Positions 47,432-64,000 of a stretch of 64,000 bases of DNA are shown piece after piece. Source of the DNA: Stylophora pistillata (lineage: Eukaryota); the NCBI RefSeq assembly GCF_002571385.2, contig NW_019217800.1, positions 505,251 to 569,250 on the forward strand, given 5' to 3'. The first letter of the stretch is position 1; every line of letters begins with the position of its first letter. The notes below the pieces were generated by a model, which saw only the letters and a program-made list of their open reading frames with translations, searched no databases and was not told the DNA's origin. A program made the position numbers and the translations under genes.

Positions 47432-50400
47432 TTTTGGCCACTACTGCCCGATTTGCGATTTTGACCACTAGTGGCCAATTTCCCATTTTGGCCACTAGTG
47501 GCCGATTTGCAATTTTCCCCACTAGTGCTCAATTTGCAATTTACCCACTACTGGCCGATTTGCGATTTTAGCCCCTAGTGGCCGATTTCCGATTTTGGCT
47601 ACTAGTGGCCCATTTACCATTTTTCCCGGTAGTAGCCCATTTCCAATTTTGGCCACTATATTGCCGCATTTCCCATTTTGATCATTACTTGCCGATTTCC
47701 CATTTTGGCCATTAGTGGCCAATTTCCCATTTTGCCCACTAGTATTTGCCATTTTGGCCACTAGTGCCTAACTTGCTATTTTGGCTAGTAGTGCTCGCTT
47801 TGCTATTTTGGCCACTCCTGGCCGATTTGCAATTTTCGCCACTACTAGAAAATTTGCCATTTTGACTACTAGTGGCCGTTTTGCGATTTTTGCCACTAGT
47901 GGCCGTTTTGCGATTTTGACCCCTGGTAGTCTTTGGCAATTTTTGCTCCTTTTCCTTCCTTGCAATTTCAAAGTGGCCGATTTGCGATTTTAGCCACTAG
48001 TGAACCATTTCCGATTTTCGCCACTACTGCCCTATTTGCAATTTTGGCCACTAGTCGACGATTTGCCATTTTGGCCACTAGTAGACGATTTCCGATTTTG
48101 CCCACTACTGGCGGATTTGTGATTGTGACTACTAGTGGACAATTTGCGATTTTGGCCACTAGTGGACGATATGCGATTCTGGCCACTAGTGGACGATTTG
48201 CCAAGTTGCCAGTAGTGGACGAATTGCGATTTTAGCCACTAGTGGACGATTTGCGATTTTGGCCACTAGTGGACGATTTCCGATTTTGGCCACTAGTAGA
48301 CGATTTCCGATTTTGACCACTAGTGGCCGATTTGCCATTTTGGCTACTAGTGGCGGATTTCCCCTTTTTCACCACTAATGGCCGATTTGCGATTTTTGCC
48401 ACTGGTGGAAGATTCGCCATTTTGGCCACTACTCGCCGATTTGCGATTTTCGCCACTAGTGGACGATTTGCCATTTTCGCCACTAGTGGACGATTTGCCA
48501 TTTTTTCCACTAGTGGATGATTTGCAATTTTCGTCACTCGTGGACGATTTGCCATTTTGTCCACTAGTGGCCGATTTTCCATTTTAGTCACTAGTGGACG
48601 ATTTGTCAATTTGCCCACCACTGGGCGACTTGCCATTGTGGCCACAAGCAGACGATTTGTCATATTGGCCACTAGTGGACGATTTACAATTTTGGCCACT
48701 AGTGGAGGATTTGCCATTTTGGCCACTAGTGGACGACTTCTCATTTTGGCAACTACTGGAGGACTTACCATTTTCGCCACAAGTGTACGATTTGCCATTT
48801 TCGCCACTAATGTACGATTTACCATTTTGGCCACTACTGGACAATTTGCCATTTTGCCCACTTGTTGACAATTTCCAACTTTGGCCACTAGTGGACAATT
48901 TGCCATTTGGCCACTAGTGGACGATTTGCCAATTTGGCCAGCAGTGAACAATTTGTCATTTTGGCCACTAGTAGAGGATTTGACAATTTGGTTACTAGTG
49001 GAAGATTTGCCATTCTGGCCACTAGTGGACGGTTTGCCATTATGGCCACTAATGGACGATTTGCAAATTTGGCCACAAGTGGACGATTTGCCATTTTGGC
49101 TACTACTAGACGATTTGCCATTTTGGCCACTAGTTGACGGTTGGCCATTTTGGCCACTAGTAGAAAATTGTCCATTTTGGCCACTAGTGGACGATTTGCC
49201 AATCTCGTTACTAGTGGACGATTTGCCATTTTGGGCTAGTGGAGGATTTCCCATTTTGGCCACTACTAGACGATTTCCCATTTTAGCCACTTGTGGATGA
49301 TTGGCCATTTCGGCCACTAGTGGAAGATTGCCCATTTTGGCCACTAGTAAACGATTTGCCATTTTCGCCACTACTCGACGATTTACCATTTTCGCCACTA
49401 GTGGACGATTTGCAATTTTGACCACTAGTAAAGGATTTATTATTTTTGCCTCTAGTGCAGGATTGGCAATATTGGCCAGTAGTGGACGATTGGCCATTTT
49501 GCACACTAGTGGACGATCTCCCCCTTTTGCCACTACTGGACGATTAACAAATTTTGCCAGTAGTGGACGATTTGCAATTTTGGCCACTAGTGGACGATTT
49601 CCCATTTTGGCCAGTAGTGGTCGATTTCCCATTTTGGCCACTAGTGGACGATTTTCCAATTTGTCCACTAGTAGACGATTTTCCAATTGAGTACTAGTGG
49701 ACGATTTTCCATTTTGGCCAGTAGTGGACGATTTGCCAATTTGGCCACTAGTGGACGATTTTCCACTTTGGCCACTAGTGGACGATTTGACATTTTGGAC
49801 ACTAGTGGAGGATTTGCCAATTTCGTTACTAGTGGATGATTTACTATTTTGGCCACTAGTCGACGTTTGGCCATATTGGCCACTAGTGGACAATTTGACA
49901 TTTTGGACACTAGTGGAGGATTTGCCAATTTCGTTACTAGTGGACGACTTGCCATTTTGGCCACTAGTGGACGATTTGCCAATTATGGCCACTAGTGGAA
50001 GATTTGCAACTTTGGCCACTAGTGGACGATTTGCCACTTTCGCCACTAGTGAACGATTTGTCATTTTGTCCACTAGTGGACGGTTTGTCATGTTGGCCAC
50101 TAGTGGACAATTTTCAATTTTCGCCACTAGTGGCCGATTTTCCAAGTTTGCCACTAGTGGACCGTCGATTTGCTATTTTCGGCACTGGTGGACGATTTGT
50201 CATTTTGTCCACTAGTGGACGGTTTGGCATGTTGGCCACTAGTGGACGATTTGCTATTTTGGCCCCTAGTGGACGATTTGCGAATTTGGGCAGTTGTGAA
50301 CGATTCTCGATTTTGGTTCCTAGTGGATGTTTTGCCATTTTGTCCACTAGTGGCCGATTTGATATTTTAACCACTAGTGTCGGATTTGCCATTTTGACCA

Positions 50401-51120
50401 TTTTTGGACGATTTGCCAATTTTTCCAGTAGTAGCGGTTTTGGGATTTTGGCCACTAGTTGCAGATTTGCCATTTTTTTTTTAATAGTGGCAGATTTCCT
50501 ATTTTAGTCACAAAGTGGCGGACTTTTCATTTTGGTCACAATGTGACTGATTTGCCATTCTGGTTACTTGTTTCTGGTTACGATTTGCGATTTTGGCCAC
50601 CAGTGGCCGACTCGCGATTTTGGTCACTACTCGTGCTTTTGCCGTTTTTGCCACGAGTGGACGATTTGCCATTTCTGCCACTAGTGCCGATTTTCTATTT
50701 TGGCCAGAACTGGACGATTTGCAATTTTTGCCACTAGTGGACGACTTACAATTTTGGCCACTAGTGGCTGATTTGGCATTTTGGGCATAAGTGGATGATT
50801 TGCAATTTTGGCTACAAGTAGGCGATTCGCTATTTTGGCCAATAGTGGCCGATTTGACATTTTGGTTACTTGTGGACGATTTGCATATATGGCCGCTAGT
50901 GACCGACTCTCGATTATGGTCACTAGTGGTGCTTTTGCCATCTTGGCCAGTAGTGGTCGTTTTGCCATTTTGGCCAAAAGCGGCTCTTTTGCCTTTCTGG
51001 CCACTAATGGTTTATTTGCGATTTTAGCTATTAGTGGCCCATTTGTCATTTTGGCAACTAGTGGCCGAGTTGTGATTATGACCGCTAGTGCAGTGGCCGT
51101 TTTACGATTTTGGGTTTTGG
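47432..51120. repeat. 27-bp tandem array (~135 units), consensus TTTTGGCCACTAGTGGACGATTTGCCA
   Basis: Periodic CCACTAGTGG palindrome every 27 nt. It produces the 9-aa repeat ORFs (MANRPLVAK, GKSSTSGQN, FWPLVDDLP, ILATSGRFA) on both strands. Confidence 0.97.
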
Positions 51121-53827
51121 ACACCAGTTGGTAACAGGCAAAATTAAGATTATATGAAGCCTAGTTTAACCATTGTAGGACACTAGAGGATAGACTGCTC
51201 GATAGACAGTGATGTTCTTAAGTTAGTGTCCACAAGTTATCATTACTATTACTATGGTTATCATTATTGTTAATATGTTGTTTTTTTTCTTCCGCTTTTC
51301 ATCGAGCATGTGGGATGCGGCAGTACTAGCCATATGCAGTCTGAACTGCTCTATTTTTTTTTTTATAGTAATGGCGCTGTTGATGTTGTGTTTCCGTCCG
51401 AAAGGAATCAAGGACACTTGCAAGTTCAGTCATTTTTCTGGATGCACCTAAGGCGCTTTATCCCTAAAATATAAAAAAACTACAACTAAAACCCTATTAA
51501 GTTATTTATTGACAAAATTTAATTATATACACAAACGATAACGCAAAGCTCGTCTTGAGAATAGATTTCCGATGCCTCCATGGGCTAATTTTTTAATAGA
51601 AGAAGTTTAGAATGTTTAGTGCAGGAGCCAGTGTGTTTACGTCCACGCCCTCGACAATCCTTATACATATAGGCAGAGTTTCCGATTGTTGTTAATCAAT
51701 CGCAGATGCCACAAAAATCTTTCTCTCTCTACTTGACAACGACGCCCTCGAAAACCGCAGGCCCGGCGCGCTGAAAAACTTCATATAATCTCATTTTTCG
51801 AGTGTGATGGAAAACTAGATAAATGGGGCCTTGAAGACACTTACAATGTCTTTTATGGTTCTTTAGGGGAGAAAAACGAAGAAATAAGAAAATTTATTAA
51901 GACTTTTATCCTGGTTGAGAGCAAAATAGAAGATTTTTTCATAATATGAAGATAAAGTATGACACTTTTTTTACCAGAGAACTGAAGCTTACGAAATTAA
52001 AGCGAGGGCAAATTCCTCTTATATCGTGGCCTTCCGTAGTTTGGTTTTATATCATTCGAAATGTGTCTTGAAATTGACTGGATAAGCTATCATGAAATAT
52101 TTATTCCCAAAGCCTGCACAGAATTAAATTAAATTGGATATTGGTTGAAGATTATCTTTGTCCATGAAATATCATTTATACAGAATACCTCTTGATAGTT
52201 TTCGACGTACGAAAACATTTAAGCAGTTTTCACTTTTTTCTGTTCGTGTTTTGACTGAAATTTCAAAAAGGAGGGCTAAAATCTTCCATGAATTGATAAA
52301 GTTGTATCTAAGAAGTTGTTTTGCGGGAAGGGAAACTCTACTCTTGTTGCTGAAAGAATAAATTTTTAATCGGACAGTTTTGATAAGAACAATTTTCTTT
52401 TGAATAGTTAATAATGATTTTTCCACTTCTTTTCACATTCGTCTTTCTCACGGCTTATTTCGTTGAACGAAAGAACAAACGATTTTACGGGTTTTCCTCA
52501 ACGTTGACATTATACTGACAGTATTGCATTTTTTTGGATCCCAGTTACACACATAGCAAATGTATAAAACGATCGGTCACTTGAACCAAGAACATGCACT
52601 TGAATTTTATTGAATTTGCTTAAACACAAATGCAAGATATATACTCTTATATCATCATATGGTCATATCGTCAATACTTGACAAGTTCACGCCGAAAAAA
52701 AGGAAACTTTTATCAACAATCTTTTCCAGTTGTTACTTATCTTCTAGGTTTGACTGCGGTTTAGGTTAATTATTTCAGAATTAACCAATTTTCGTCATCC
52801 ATCGTTTTCGGAAGCAGTGGTTCCTCTGGTTTCCCGCGGTTTATTTCGCATTCTGATCGCAACAGAGAGTGCGAAATGAATGTGAGTTCGTTGATATATT
52901 GCGCGGAAACACGCACCAATACCTTCTCGCTAAGACATTGCTTTTTTTTTTGTCTTTTTTTTTTTTTTCGGTCAGTAAGTCCTTCCTCATAGCAAAATTT
53001 CCAGATTGATTGTTTTCTTTGGAAGATGTTTATCCAACGTAAATCATGAAGCATATGAGAGAAGGACACACGGCGTCTTGCAAAAAGATATTAAATTCGA
53101 TAACGAAAAATAACTGTTTCAGAAGTTTTTGTCACATCAAGAGACTTTTCTTCCGATTTTCCCATCGGGGTCACCATATACAATTTAAAATTCTGTTTGT
53201 ACTTGCTTGCCTCGCTTGCTTTGTTTAGACTGGAGTTTGGTTCTCATAAAAATGAGGCCGATCTCGAAAAAAAAATTCATCGACGGCTTCATAACACCGA
53301 ATAGATATTTTTAATTCCGTATGAACCTAATTAGTAAAATTGGTTTACATTTGCATATGTACCTTTACTTTCATAGTCTTCAATTAAACAAGTGAATTTC
53401 GCTTCGATTCACCAAAGCTATGTTTTTTTCGATTAACTTCTAATATGTTAGTTTGTTATAACTGTTACAAAACAAATAAAGGAATCTCCCAGCGTTCGTT
53501 AATATGCTTCTCAAACTTGGCTTTTAAACAGTTTTCAAATTGAAAAAACAGTGTCAGTTGGGAAGACTTGCGAAATAATCTCGAATAATCAAGAACAAAA
53601 TTCAAATCAGGATCGATGACCATGAAAAATTTAAGGATATTTACTTCTTTGTCTCTACAACTTAAGCTTTCTGGAAGTAATCCACAAGGCTTTTATGCGT
53701 CTTCGCAGTTCAAAATCAAGGACGTCTGTAAAAGAAACCACAGATTTCTTCAAATGAAGAGTGGTAGTGATTACTGAAGCGTGAAGCAGTAAACAAAGCG
53801 AAACACGCTGTAAAGTTACGTAATTAT

Positions 53828-54490
53828 CTATTCAGTTGATTCACCAGAAGCGCCTTCTTTACCCGGTTTCTTCTCTGCTAAAGAAGGCTGAGGATCAGCT
53901 ACAAGCAATACTTCATTGTGACGGCCAAACAGCCGGAAAGGTGGATCATGGCCGGCTGCAATGTACATATTTTTCACATAACCCTTGCCGTCTCTCTCCA
54001 AGGCCTCTTTGAGCTTCTTCTCGTTTTCTCGCCAATCCTTGTCCTTCGCGAAACCGCCAAAACCCGATGCATACATCACACAGCCGTCAACTTTCTCATG
54101 GAACACCGATTTATCTTTAGGTACTGGAGGTGTGGCTTGGAACTCGGCTGGGGTGTAAAAAGACATAGTGAAGGCCTCACATTTTCCTTCGTTGTCGAGT
54201 TCGACCTGGGAATAAACAGGCACAGTCATGGCTATTTTCTTTCCCCCCTCGTTCTCTCCCCTGATGTAATTGAAGAGCCTCCAGAATCCGGTACTTGAGC
54301 AATTTTCTAGGTTGCCTTCTTCAAATCTTGTCTTGACCCAATGGGAGTCTTCATACAAGCGTACTTCGTAACCATCGTTGTGTTCGAGAACTTTGTAGCG
54401 CGGGCCTTCGGAGCCCCGGTAACTTTCGGGAATGTGGAATTCGCTCGTGTCTACCTTCGGTTTTTCTTCGCCTTTCAACCAATTCAACAT
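53828..54490 (-). CDS. SOUL family heme-binding protein (HEBP2-like), intronless, 220 aa
   Basis: SOUL motifs: PRYKVL..GYEVRLY..SHWV, GFWRLFNYIRGEN..KIAMTVPV, TMSFY.P..Q..PP.P.D..VF, Y.SGFGGFA, AG.DPPF.LF.RHNEV. GC-richer coding composition. Confidence 0.93.
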   Translation of the reverse strand: MLNWLKGEEKPKVDTSEFHIPESYRGSEGPRYKVLEHNDGYEVRLYEDSHWVKTRFEEGNLENCSSTGFWRLFNYIRGENEGGKKIAMTVPVYSQVELDNEGKCEAFTMSFYTPAEFQATPPVPKDKSVFHEKVDGCVMYASGFGGFAKDKDWRENEKKLKEALERDGKGYVKNMYIAAGHDPPFRLFGRHNEVLLVADPQPSLAEKKPGKEGASGESTE

Positions 54491-54979
54491 GGCTGCTTGA
54501 GTATTTAGGGCGACAAGAAATACTACGACTTAATCGGCGAGAGATCACTGCGAGTGATCGTCCTTACAAGTGCCACGGTAAGTTTGTCCAATCGCCGATT
54601 GCGTTACACAGGTTACTTGTCTCCGTGACGGTATAACGTGACTATTCCCCAACCACCAAACTTCAACTTGAAGGAGGGTAAATATCTTTTAAAAGGTTTT
54701 TTTTTAGTTTTAAGGTCACCTTTTGACAACCATAACTTTTGATTCTTCCATTCTAACCTTCAGGTGTAGCGATAGAAAGAGGGAGACTTGGGTCAGGTCG
54801 AAGAAAAGAGGGAGGCATGGGTCGGGTCGCGTGAAAAAAGGAGAGAAACTAGGGAATTTCATGAATGGCCCACAAAGCAAGGGGACGAAAAAACTGACTT
54901 TCTGGGTGGAGCATAGTTTTATCTTCATTCCTAAAATTTGACTCGGCTTAATGATGAGTAATTTTTGCGTGATTTTTCT

Positions 54980-59212: not shown

Positions 59213-60463
59213 AGTGATAAATCTTCCTTTCCTTAAATTTGTGAACTGACTTCAAAGGGTGAAAATTAAAACTTAGTGGAAGCAAGTCCGGAAACACTAA
59301 GCCAACAAATGTTTATTACGGGATTAGCCTTGATCTCACTTTTACCCTAAATGGAATTACGCAAGCTTTTAAAACAATGTACCGAATCTCCTCTAATCTT
59401 ACAATAATGTGAGAACTACGAGAATTTTGATCAGATCTAGTTTAACTCATCAACATCGTATTGAAACAGACAAAGCTAAGAATCCTAGAACAAGTGTGTT
59501 TGACAAGCTTCATAACATGATACGTGAAGTGTGATGAGTTTTCGTAATAAATCTTTTCTTTCTTCACTACTGTCTTTGTTGTGAAAAAGACTCTTAATAA
59601 TGAACTGCGGATTACCATAGCCGAGCAAGGTTATCGTTCATCGCAAAGAGAAACAGTCACTTCAAAATAATGTTCTGAAATGTTGGTAGAGGAAAAACTC
59701 CATTCCTGATGTCCATTCCTTACCCAGCAGACTTAACAGACCGAAACTCGATAAGAATTCAACTGATCAGTGTTCATCAACAAAGTATTAGGTGTACTAA
59801 GACCCTGAAAGAATTCTAAGACGAGTTAATCAATACGCAGGTGACTAACACGAGCGAGTATGTGCAGAGAGCATTCTACTTAATTAAGAGCTGTCAACAT
59901 ATTTAATCTTCTACCAACTCGGCGGATTTCCCACCAGAGAAAGGTAAAGACGAGAGAGTGACAACAGCAATGTAGTTTACTTGAGTTTGTATGGTTGATA
60001 TGCTCTGCTGTGCGGCTCAACTCATGTTTACATTCCAAACATTTCTCCACGTCTAGCTCGTTTCGAGCAGGGCACTTTTGAATCAGATCAGATCAACTAC
60101 AACATCCGGTTCGTTTCCGATGATCACCAACCTGTAAAATTTTTTGTCTCATTTTTGTACATAAACACCAAATATCTAATTTTTCACTTTCTAAGGGACG
60201 TAATATTGAAAGTAAAATTTACCCGAACGGCTTGTGTGAAAGATCGTGTTGTTTTTAATAACCTTTGCAAACACGAGGAAACGATATGCTCTACTGTGAC
60301 TTTTGATGGAACTATGGCATGAAAATATGTTTTTTGCTTCCTCTATAGTCTGAGTCGAATCACTTTTCTTCAGTAATTGCTGCTGGTATGAAGTAATTCT
60401 TTGAATTTGCTTGAGCTATTGTGCTACGTACCTATTACATACGCCCATCCACAACTAACTAAA

Positions 60464-61677
60464 GGCATATTGTAAAATAAACACTGGATTGGATTTGTAA
60501 AACATGGACTGGATTTGTAAAATATGGACTGGATTTGTCAAACATGGACTGGATTTGTCAAACATGGATTGGATTTGTCAAACATGGACTGGATTTGTCA
60601 AACATGGACTGGATTTGTCAAACATAGACTGGATTTGTAAAACATGGATTTGTAAAACATGGATTTTTAGTGTTTGAATTGGTAGTACCATTTCAAACAC
60701 TGAAAGTTATCCGTGTTTAATTTCATCCTCGCGACCTTCTTCACTCTTTTTCACGTGTTTGCTGGATGCAGAATATTCACTTTTTCACGTAGTTGAGTAA
60801 ACTGAAAAAGCTCGTTCCAGATATGTACAGTTACTATAACAAATCTGGAAAATATTTAAGTACATGGCGCTTAAATAGACTCCAGTGTTTTATTCATCTT
60901 TAACACAAGAGAAGAAACAAATGTAAAGTCAGCCAAATAGACGGTCCCAAATATCCCGCTTCCAAGCTCTTCTTTAATTTTTACAGAGCTCCACGAGAAC
61001 TCTGGAAACTCAAATCCACGTCGCCGTTTTATGGTCAGAGATGGAACTTTAAAAGAAGCCGCCATCTCCTTCCTATCTTCTCCCGCGCAAATTTAAAAGA
61101 TGCAAATCTATTTTCGACTGAGTTCTACAATGCATTTTTCAAATTACGGTCTTTTGGCAGCCTGGTTGTTTGTATATCACGTACACTTTCAGGTTTGTTC
61201 CATGTTTGCCCTTGTAAAATTACCTATTCCCGTAAAGCATTGGAAATCGGTCTTGACCAGCTCCTGTGTATTGAGATGTTGTTAATTTTACAAATAAAAA
61301 CGCGCCGAATGCATTGTAGAGTTAATTATAAGCACGCGGAATTTTGTTTTTGAACACGAGAGAATGTCAAAAATGCTGAGAATGGTTACTCGCTGTAAGC
61401 GAATGCTTCTCGTATTTCTTGACTATTCTTAAAAATTTTCAAATGCTAATACAAACTCAACATCAAACAATCTTTTAGAGAAATTATTAGGTAATATAAA
61501 ATAAAAATAATATAAAGTAAAAAAATTAAGATTAAAAAGGGACAGACAGAGAAATAAACAAATAAACAGTCGAACAATGTTATCATGTTTCCATAAATCC
61601 ATGTTTTACAAATCCATGTTTTACAAATCCAGTCCATGTTTTACAAATCCAATCCAGTCTGTGTTTTACAATATGCC
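60464..61677. mobile_element. Non-autonomous Mutator-like DNA transposon carrying a kinase gene fragment
   Basis: TIRs GGCATATTGTAAAA...TTTTACAATATGCC. Perfect 9-bp TSD CTAACTAAA (60455-60463 and 61678-61686). Subterminal 20-bp repeats GGATTTGTMAAACATGGACT. Internal ORF 60871-61065(-). Confidence 0.85.
60871..61065 (-). pseudogene. Protein-kinase N-terminal fragment (subdomain I) inside the transposon
   Basis: MAASFKVP...FSWSSVKIKEELGSGIFGTVYLADF contains the Gly-rich loop GxGxFGxV. Similarity is lost afterwards (no VAxK, HRD or DFG) and the frame stops at 64 aa. Confidence 0.7.
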
Positions 61678-61701
61678 CTAACTAAACGCTTGTTTCAGCA
61701 A

Positions 61702-61729: not shown

Positions 61730-64000
61730 TACAAAAGCAACGATCACAATTAAAGCTGTCAAGTGGGATATTGTGCTAACATATGTTGGCTTCACTCTCC
61801 GATGTTGTCAGCTGACCTGTTTCAAAACGTCTGCTAAACCATATGTAACATGAGTTTAAGATGATTTCCAAGGTTTGACGTCAATCTTTTTATTGAAAAA
61901 CCATTTTTCATTTTTCTCTTTTGTCCTGCCTAAGCGCAGTTCTCGAGGGCGTGAGTAGTTTTCCAGATGCAACACTTCGAGCACATAAGCCAGAATGATG
62001 GAACCGCTTTACATAAAGAGGACACTAGTTTACTTTAACTACTTTAAATTTTTCATTTTTACTTTATTGTAATCAGACATGACATGACACTTAACAAATA
62101 ACGCACTACCCACAAATAGTAGAGCTAGTCTCAGCGGGCAGTGTGTGGACGCTAAAACATCTTAAATAAGTTTCGGCTCAACAAAAGATTCAATAAATAT
62201 ACAAGAAACAGAAATTAAATATTAAATCAGTAAAGCAGAAATGACAGTATGAGATAAAAATACAGAAACAGAAACACATGACAATAAATAGAAGAATACA
62301 TAAGTTATACACTACTATTAACTGGATTTAACTTTCGACACATCATTGATTATTCGTTCTACGTCAACATAACTATCCTGAACTTGAAGATTTTGAAATA
62401 ATGTAGATGTTAGNNNNNNNNNNNNNNNNNNNNNNNNNNNNNNNNNNNNNNNNNNNNNNNNNNNNNNNNNNNNNNNNNNNNNNNNNNNNNNNNNNNNNNN
62501 NNNNNNNNNNNNNNNNNNNNNNNNNNNNNNNNNNNNNNNNNNNNNNNNNNNNNNNNNNNNNNNNNNNNNNNNNNNNNNNNNNNNNNNNNNNNNNNNNNNN
62601 NNNNNNNNNNNNNNNNNNNNNNNNNNNNNNNNNNNNNNNNNNNNNNNNNNNNNNNNNNNNNNNNNNNNNNNNNNNNNNNNNNNNNNNNNNNNNNNNNNNN
62701 NNNNNNNNNNNNNNNNNNNNNNNNNNNNNNNNNNNNNNNNNNNNNNNNNNNNNNNNNNNNNNNNNNNNNNNNNNNNNNNNNNNNNNNNNNNNNNNNNNNN
62801 NNNNNNNNNNNNNNNNNNNNNNNNNNNNNNNNNNNNNNNNNNNNNNNNNNNNNNNNNNNNNNNNNNNNNNNNNNNNNNNNNNNNNNNNNNNNNNNNNNNN
62901 NNNNNNNNNNNNNNNNNNNNNNGGGGTAGGGGTTGGGAGAGTGGAATGGATGGTTTGTGTAGGGTGGTACCCAGAGGCACTTAGTAAAGGCTCGTGTTGA
63001 ATCAATACTTGTGAGAAACCTACACTTTTGGGACAAATTCTTCTGTATTTAATATTTTTCTATGCTGCTGAAAGCGTTCCCTTGCACGATAAGATGAGAC
63101 TGGAGACCTTTGTCAAAGCCGTGCAATTCTTTAGAAAGGAGTTAAACCACATTTCGTTCGTCCTCATAAAATATTCACATCTAATCTATAACATCTAATA
63201 TATTCAGTTATACGGGTGTGTCATAGCGCTTATGCATTCAGTGCGGGCCACCAGGTGCATTTCCTTCAAAAACGGTCGGTTAACTACCGATTGATGAACT
63301 ATTTAGTAAATTTTACGCAATTACTGAGCTGAGGCACCCAAATAACCCTAATTCTGGACGGATTTACTTCACAAAAGGAAGAAAAAAAAATATCTCTCCT
63401 ATACTTAAACCAAACGTATTATAAACTGATGTTCTCATGTAGTATTTGTTTACAAGAGAATCTTGATTTTAAACTTTATAGTTGGCGGCGGCCATTGATT
63501 AGATGAAACGAATCCTCTCTTCTGATTGCCCACTGGCCATTTTGCCCGCTCGAGATTGCCCACTTTAACCCCGCACAACGAAAAAATGCGGGGAGAGGAC
63601 TTAACAACAATCGTAATTTTTGGACAATGTCGGTAATGGAGTCGCAAATAGCGACGGAAGACGAAATCACGTTATTTTTTCAATTTGTCAAATGAAAAAA
63701 CCAGCACGCACCATCACAATTGGCTTTCTTATTAAAATACACAAAGCGTTTTTGATTCTTATAAAAACAAAATATTTTTGCTATATGGTAAATCTGTTGT
63801 ATATTGACCAAGCTTGTTTAGTCGAGATATTAACTTCGTTCTTTTTGTGCGGTTTTGTGGTCTCGGTCCATAAAAACGGCGGAATAAAAAGAACTAGACT
63901 TGACCTCCCTCTTGTTCAATAACACATATATCAGTGTTATCAAATTATAATATAAACAAAGAAAGAGCACATCTGTCGCTAGAATGACCCTCAGGGCTGC

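Follow-up and report, generated by a model that had tools for sequence, protein, structure and literature searches.

The usual view of cut-and-paste transposons in eukaryotes is that a transposase is almost all they require. Kaonashi elements, which are plant Mutator-like elements (MULEs), bear their own protease of ubiquitin-like modifiers, Ulp1, which belongs to another protease family than the one described below, and are not known to bear a kinase. Among animal Mutator/MuDR members, Phantom, Rehavkus and Ghost have 8–10-bp target-site duplications (TSDs), terminal inverted repeats (TIRs), an IS256-like DDE domain, a SWIM-like finger and non-autonomous derivatives (PMC6446971), as do the coral elements that we describe here. 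The coral elements differ in bearing a kinase: the main text of that 2019 survey contains neither 'kinase' nor 'protease', and its table rows name extras such as zinc fingers, SET, FAR1 or MutB (PMC6446971). Deubiquitinases of the VTD type, which are defined by Cys and Asp-x-His residues, occur in Helitrons and Helentrons and in herpesvirus tegument proteins (PMC9741609). The coral domain is likewise borne by a DNA transposon and shares the fold and these residues; unlike the Helitron VTDs, the predicted coral VTD is fused C-terminally to a protein kinase, and its element is of the cut-and-paste kind. According to the same paper, cnidarian VTDs are fused to transposon-associated domains, which it leaves unnamed; its main text contains neither 'kinase' nor 'mutator', and its supplementary text neither 'kinase' nor 'MULE' (PMC9741609). 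Pack-MULEs are 1–2-kb TIR elements that hold a gene fragment and no transposase (PMC6431247), and so is the copy in our window, by which we mean the whole 64-kb stretch of DNA that was analysed; unlike in Pack-MULEs, its fragment appears to come from the element's own gene and not from a host's. The msft-1/tlpr-1 element of Caenorhabditis briggsae is likewise an animal MULE with a whole enzyme gene, and the KRMA kinases on Mavericks are likewise kinases carried as DNA-transposon cargo (bioRxiv 10.1101/2022.07.12.499685). There the serine protease stems from a single capture out of a Maverick, and the kinases ride on Mavericks, whereas in corals a kinase of eukaryotic type is found repeatedly, in many MULE lineages that have diverged from one another. 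We found no description of kinase-encoding MULEs in the literature covered, Repbase and most subscription journals lying outside it. Here we present evidence that the element in the window is very probably a copy of a coral Mutator-type transposon that an internal deletion has left non-coding. In full-length relatives of this transposon, an intact kinase exon precedes the transposase and is in most cases joined to a predicted deubiquitinase; the kinase is likely part of the transposon's own machinery and not captured host DNA.

The element is 1,214 bp long (60464..61677, minus strand), with the ends GGCATATTGT...ACAATATGCC and terminal arms of 65 nt that are 94% complementary. Its left end, downstream of the kinase, consists of a TIR and an array of 20-nt and 15-nt subterminal repeats (60464..60666, unstranded), in which eight copies of the 20-nt repeat (60483-60636) are followed by the 15-nt units; these repeats are likely to be transposase-binding sites. 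The right end, upstream of the kinase, has a TIR with three to four repeat units (61595..61677, unstranded). From left to right, the interior comprises sequence past a deletion breakpoint (60667..60919, minus strand), common to the family copies and likely derived from the opposite end of the parent, then a kinase-derived segment, and then a non-coding leader that extends from the TIR to the kinase ATG (61066..61594, minus strand) and is likely the promoter and 5′ UTR of the parent. The kinase ATG lies 0.3–0.7 kb from the end repeats in the related elements L266, L273 and L274 as well. The 9-mer CTAACTAAA abuts both ends exactly, as the left (60455..60463) and right (61678..61686) copies of an unstranded TSD; its four occurrences in the window, where 1.05 would be expected, include this flanking pair. 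An initial annotation, made from the window alone, had described a 1.2-kb element with TIRs, 20-bp subterminal repeats and a perfect 9-bp TSD, all of which we confirmed. No transposase match was found in the 64-kb window.

A DNA search of its own genome (398 Mb) with the element returned 196 matches, several of them near-full copies. The genome-wide search for long copies that the initial annotation had proposed thus revealed a family, and in the gapped assembly it revealed no autonomous copy with the family's own TIR. Five of the six family copies with two readable ends (the window copy, C145, C1, C828 and C26) are flanked by a 9-bp duplication with at most one mismatch, the sequence of which differs in each; in another copy, C1008, a 10-bp duplication with one mismatch fits, and C38, from a related subfamily with slightly altered ends, has a 9-bp duplication too. 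The element is real and has been mobile. We also looked for the empty site that had been suggested as a check: no joint across the element was seen in four DNA or unlabelled runs, the contigs of which cannot prove absence. Contig X1 extends for 33 nt from the left flank into the TIR, and two other contigs for 23 nt only; the insertion therefore seems to be shared. To the right of the element lies a separate high-copy repeat (62056-62360), with a depth about 100–300 times that of the flank in three DNA runs.

We then characterized the coding remnant. The ORF (60871..61065, minus strand; ATG at 61065 in the context GAGATGGCGG) encodes 64 aa, which comprise 48 kinase codons and 16 read-through codons. 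The kinase-derived segment (60920..61065, minus strand) represents the N-terminus and the glycine-rich loop; it is 88% identical to the protein P0003 and 62% identical, over 47 columns, to the intact kinase of L266. Kinase origin is limited to codons 1–48, and unrelated sequence follows, so that the start of a kinase N-lobe which the initial annotation had read in this ORF was upheld for these codons and not for the last 16. By itself the 64-aa ORF had no Pfam match at E ≤ 10; despite this, phmmer found 62 proteins at E ≤ 0.001, and the 30 of these that were inspected were all kinase N-termini of the same type, in agreement with the kinase match that had been predicted. In C26, which has the TIRs of the window family, the kinase runs on through subdomains II–III with the lysine and alphaC motifs (PK_Tyr_Ser-Thr, E 1.1e-4). 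As C26 shares the TIRs and continues the kinase, the window copy lost the remainder by a deletion near 60920. The peptide search proposed earlier thus retrieved a longer kinase piece from inside the same TIRs, and full kinases together with a MULE transposase only from relatives with other TIRs.

The sequence past the breakpoint is shared by six other copies, which are 92–94% identical to the window copy in their internal part. When the 48 codons were compared among six copies, we counted 20 replacement changes, one stop and four silent changes, and one family copy has a frameshifting deletion. The stub ends before the catalytic Lys and therefore cannot act as a kinase. It is dead, decaying without selection, and has no functional product. 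RNA coverage, which the initial annotation had recommended checking, offered no sign of expression of the window copy in three raw RNA runs: 22, 43 and 49 reads of 12.9 million matched the element, mostly at less than 95%, and therefore come for the most part from other copies. A 149-aa frame on the plus strand had no Pfam match at the curated cut-offs and was taken as noise. P0003 is itself a 139-aa kinase stub, with 42 cluster members on many large contigs, and its cluster probably reflects a deletion derivative of the same family that was amplified independently in a different genome. In C26 (L047:2759-5044), both arms come from the end upstream of the kinase and enclose the longer kinase piece and an unrelated insert, which suggests long foldback ends or template switching.

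The size of the element, its TIRs, its 9-bp TSD and the presence of the 5′ end of a gene would fit a non-autonomous MULE that took up such an end from a kinase gene of its host, which was one of the two origins put forward by the initial annotation. Pack-MULEs are known in a cnidarian parasite (bioRxiv 10.64898/2026.02.11.705288), and kinase genes lie close to MULEs in a fungus (PMC8647823). Against such a capture, no host gene was identified as the source of the internal sequence: outside the TIR family, the best candidates scored in the gapped assembly of its own genome were at most 52% identical. The nearest full kinases sit in transposons, and many divergent elements contain the kinase as one exon on which purifying selection acts. 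In a FastTree phylogeny of 51 kinase rows, in which the stub fills 14% of the columns, it grouped with P0003 and C26 (support 98) and, together with these, with P0122 and L266 (support 100). Because a host parent was not found and the stub groups with transposon-borne kinases, we consider that the element is not a Pack-MULE, and a captured host fragment seems very improbable. The other origin put forward, a deletion derivative of an autonomous kinase-encoding element, gained support from L266 and from loci at which TIRs enclose both a kinase and a transposase. Neither the VTD domain of the relatives nor the probable splicing into the transposase had been anticipated by that annotation.

L266, the closest complete relative, is a contig of 9,159 bp with TIRs at both ends, the sequence of which differs from that of the window TIR; it encodes an intact kinase (Pfam Pkinase, E 5e-38) and a 937-codon transposase frame. 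L273 and L274, from the enclosing clade, encode a kinase-VTD and a transposase, and the repeats upstream of their kinases are 75–84% like the subterminal repeats of the window copy. The related full-length elements have the layout TIR, kinase(-VTD) exon, gap, transposase exon and TIR, where the transposase exon consists of a GCM/WRKY-like DNA-binding part, a DDE core and a SWIM-like finger. A VTD domain is fused to most full kinases of the family and is absent from L266; since this closest complete relative lacks it, the parent of the window element was probably without a VTD. Searches of the own genome gave 44 matches with a fuller kinase of the family as query and 72 with a 559-aa Porites protein. 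The kinase Lys, alphaC Glu, HRD, DFG and APE motifs are present in the full-length relatives, in all or nearly all rows. In diverged pairs, the kinase had a dN/dS of 0.17–0.18 and the VTD values of 0.18 and 0.32; in close pairs dN/dS was 0.37–0.38 for the kinase and, on few changes, 0.23 and 1.05 for the VTD, and the comparisons that involved L266 were saturated. Judged by these ratios, both domains are under purifying selection in full-length elements.

The domain C-terminal to the kinase had no good Pfam match, and a PDB sequence search gave nothing significant; Herpes_teg_N was hit in three of 35 rows at E ≤ 1, at best with 0.0012. Its structural model (pLDDT 92; Foldseek E 1e-4) resembles the zebrafish Helitron VTD 8ADD (Z 17.7, rmsd 3.0, 188 aligned) and cytomegalovirus M48 (2J7Q; Z 15.2), so that an M48-like papain fold is predicted for the relatives; the best non-VTD structure had Z 11.3. 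UFSP and ATG4 proteases also have an Asp-x-His triad (PMC9741609), and they matched the model at Z ≤ 7.7. In the alignment, the catalytic Cys is present in 34 of 35, the Asp in 29 of 30 and the His in 29 of 29 of the rows that reach them. The modelled domain is thus likely to be a deubiquitinase of the VTD fold.

The transposase of L266 was also modelled (pLDDT 71). The best match was ISCth4 of the IS256/Mutator family (Foldseek E 5.8e-6; Z 12.7, rmsd 4.9, 230 aligned), ahead of Hermes (Z 9.8) and the P element (Z 8.9), and the N-terminal part matched GCM, NAC and WOPR-type folds at middling Z scores of 6–7.5. The aligned transposase frames have D, D, CxxH and E motifs and a SWIM-like finger, as expected for an IS256/Mutator-type DDE transposase, which the autonomous relatives thus possess and the window copy lacks. 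The Pfam MULE profile matched the transposases at E 1.5e-4 to 0.013, its best score of 22.5 bits lying below the curated cut-off of 27.6. TSDs of 8–11 bp, mostly 9 bp, are a feature of Mutator/MULE elements; those of the window family are mostly 9 bp, and those of full-length relatives 8, 8 and 10 bp. TIRs, often long or accompanied by subterminal repeats, are another such feature, and the window element has them. On the modelled match to ISCth4 and the TSD lengths, we place the elements in the Mutator superfamily, as the initial annotation had done. Academ, Merlin, ISL2EU and Kolobok were also considered and were dropped, the linked transposase matching IS256/Mutator best.

We examined how regularly kinase and transposase occur together. 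At 14 of 33 own-genome kinase or VTD loci with examined flanks, a transposase-like frame lies downstream on the same strand (13 of 32 without C465, a locus that had been chosen by its transposase), where chance linkage would be about 0.1% per 10 kb, as calculated from 49 transposase matches in 398 Mb, itself a lower bound. The remaining 19 loci have no transposase downstream, whether through gaps, through deletions or because the two were never linked. Among 15 candidate TIR pairs, a duplication was found for six: kinase and transposase are enclosed at C167 and C512 (8 bp each) and at C20 (10 bp), the kinase only at C1759 and C172 (9 bp each), and the transposase only at C362 (9 bp). In metagenome contigs, for which 79 loci were kept out of 277 relatives, ten loci have a transposase downstream and none on the opposite strand, three pairs among the ten being near-copies; where at least 3 kb of downstream sequence was present, the transposase was found at eight of 16 loci (five of seven with the C-terminal VTD domain and three of nine without). 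Conversely, eight of ten loci picked by their transposase have no kinase nearby. P0199, in which a VTD is joined to a MULE, is 98–100% identical to own-genome C768 over three of four pieces and was not counted as independent.

Kinase retrocopies, or a separate kinase-bearing element, might by chance have landed repeatedly in or beside MULEs. Nested insertions are common at such loci (C167, C269), and one kinase clade (C293, L296, L297, L307) has neither VTD nor transposase nearby where tested. Such nesting is made unlikely by the order, strand and spacing of the two genes, which are constant among elements with kinases only 32–64% identical, by the single TIR pair and TSD that enclose both genes, and by their co-divergence, in that the identities of the kinases are correlated with those of the transposases (rho 0.39 for 20 loci; for the 14 non-redundant ones, Mantel rho 0.33 with p 0.002). 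We find chance nesting scarcely credible, and retain the composite transposon. Pairing is not strict: C739 falls with C114 by transposase (49%) and with C43 by kinase (53%), and such mismatches suggest swapping. In a quick tree, the kinase-bearing transposases did not form one clade (six changes; 101 of 500 shuffles were as low), and their scatter among kinase-less ones fits either frequent loss of an old cargo or recurrent exchange. The homologues with a named source belong to stony corals, octocorals, a hydrozoan and a sea cucumber, and transposase linkage is known from corals. Viral contigs yielded 40 loci, all of them generic kinases at 22–34% identity, and the ESM Atlas yielded generic kinase clusters only.

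Several loci stand apart. L109-L110 (C293), P0190, P0211, P0212 and P0223 belong to the same kinase family and have tandem C-terminal repeats of an unassigned domain and no VTD or transposase, and a neighbour of C293 has a weak JAB-like match (E 5e-4); this clade is possibly a domesticated or differently mobilised branch. On a GC-rich contig (L333:6194-13046), a kinase-VTD is followed by a 749-codon frame with DD-CxxH-like motifs. As a coral-type transposase this frame was rejected and left out of the counts (hhalign probability 2.7% against coral transposases); it may represent a second transposase clade with the same cargo in another animal. Within the nested insertions at C167 (L099:1103-9265), one frame matches an integrase core (Pfam rva_4, E 3e-34) and another, of 412 aa and no assigned family, is duplicated. 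At C1202 (L044), a broken kinase-VTD lies next to a frame that we take to resemble the C-terminus of a Pif1-type helicase.

Does the composite element encode one protein or two? At most loci the kinase-VTD frame stops at a donor-like site, the position of which is conserved. Several transposase frames lack a start codon and are immediately preceded by a pyrimidine tract and AG. In L266, six repeated mini-exons with GT-AG borders join the kinase to the transposase; the eight GT-AG exons give an open frame of 1,380 aa, and direct splicing is in frame too. A rough splice model produced in-frame chains in seven of ten elements, six of them above all 12 shuffled controls, and no chain in three of ten. 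Two Porites gene models (P0135 and P0320), which are predictions only, fuse the VTD to the N-terminus of the transposase. From these signals in the sequence, we somewhat favour a single protein, for which splicing would connect the kinase(-VTD) exon to that of the transposase by way of short linker exons. The same composite element might instead contain two separate genes, with the kinase-VTD as a free accessory protein, an anti-silencing factor or selfish toxin-like cargo, that was swapped between Mutator lineages; a nematode MULE has a separate protease toxin and an antidote (bioRxiv 10.1101/2022.07.12.499685). Separate genes would suit the 1.5–3 kb between the kinase(-VTD) and transposase exons, the three elements with no chain and the differing partners of C739; no fused kinase-transposase protein was found among proteins of 1,382–3,945 aa, where six unrelated kinases were, and no transcript joining kinase, VTD and transposase was seen. 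They would not account for the donor-like end of the kinase-VTD frame, the acceptor-like start of several transposase frames, the long open chain of L266 or the two Porites predictions. The two-gene reading, which departs from the preferred one in the fusion step only and takes its share of the confidence placed in the composite element, is a real but lesser possibility.

In the window family, a single deletion took away nearly all of the coding sequence, from 48 codons into the kinase. The shortened form was copied to several sites, with its own 9-bp duplication at each, and then decayed; the short copies would have moved in trans, the parent's transposase binding the subterminal repeats and acting by cut-and-paste. 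In the full-length elements, the role that we find most likely for the predicted kinase and protease, with about even odds, is to act on the transposase or on host silencing and degradation factors close to it. The kinase would phosphorylate these targets, and the VTD would strip off ubiquitin chains, as proposed for Helitron VTDs (PMC9741609). Alternatively, the protease might cleave its own protein, or the enzymes might have a separate anti-silencing or selfish role.

A broader picture, which we hold tentatively, is that of an old and widespread animal Mutator lineage in which the transposase is made as a polyprotein that begins with an active kinase, followed by a deubiquitinase of herpesvirus type. 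Its transpososome would bring its own phosphate writer and ubiquitin eraser against host degradation and silencing, and in coral genomes dozens of supposed kinase genes, wrongly annotated as such, and possibly one domesticated clade of kinases would derive from it. That a kinase and, mostly, a deubiquitinase-like domain are kept under selection among elements with kinases 32–64% identical suggests that hosts control transposases through phosphorylation and ubiquitin, and the two soluble enzymes could serve to find the targets. Such a lineage would account for the cnidarian VTD fusions that were left unnamed in 2022 (PMC9741609), and would widen the routes by which VTDs move between transposons and viruses. 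It also carries a warning, in that many single-exon 'kinase genes' in coral annotations would be transposon parts. The window copy itself is ordinary, a fossil that does no more than mark the Mutator lineage with its encoded kinase-(VTD).

The window has other features besides this element. A long tandem-repeat region (48232-51160) contains several frames that are open on both strands. Three minus-strand frames presumably correspond to a histone H2B (40102-40515), a SOUL haem-binding protein (53828-54529) and an F-box/FIST protein (18139-22488), which they resemble, and two plus-strand fragments (31048-32001 and 37949-38696) resemble what we take to be C-termini of LINE reverse transcriptases.
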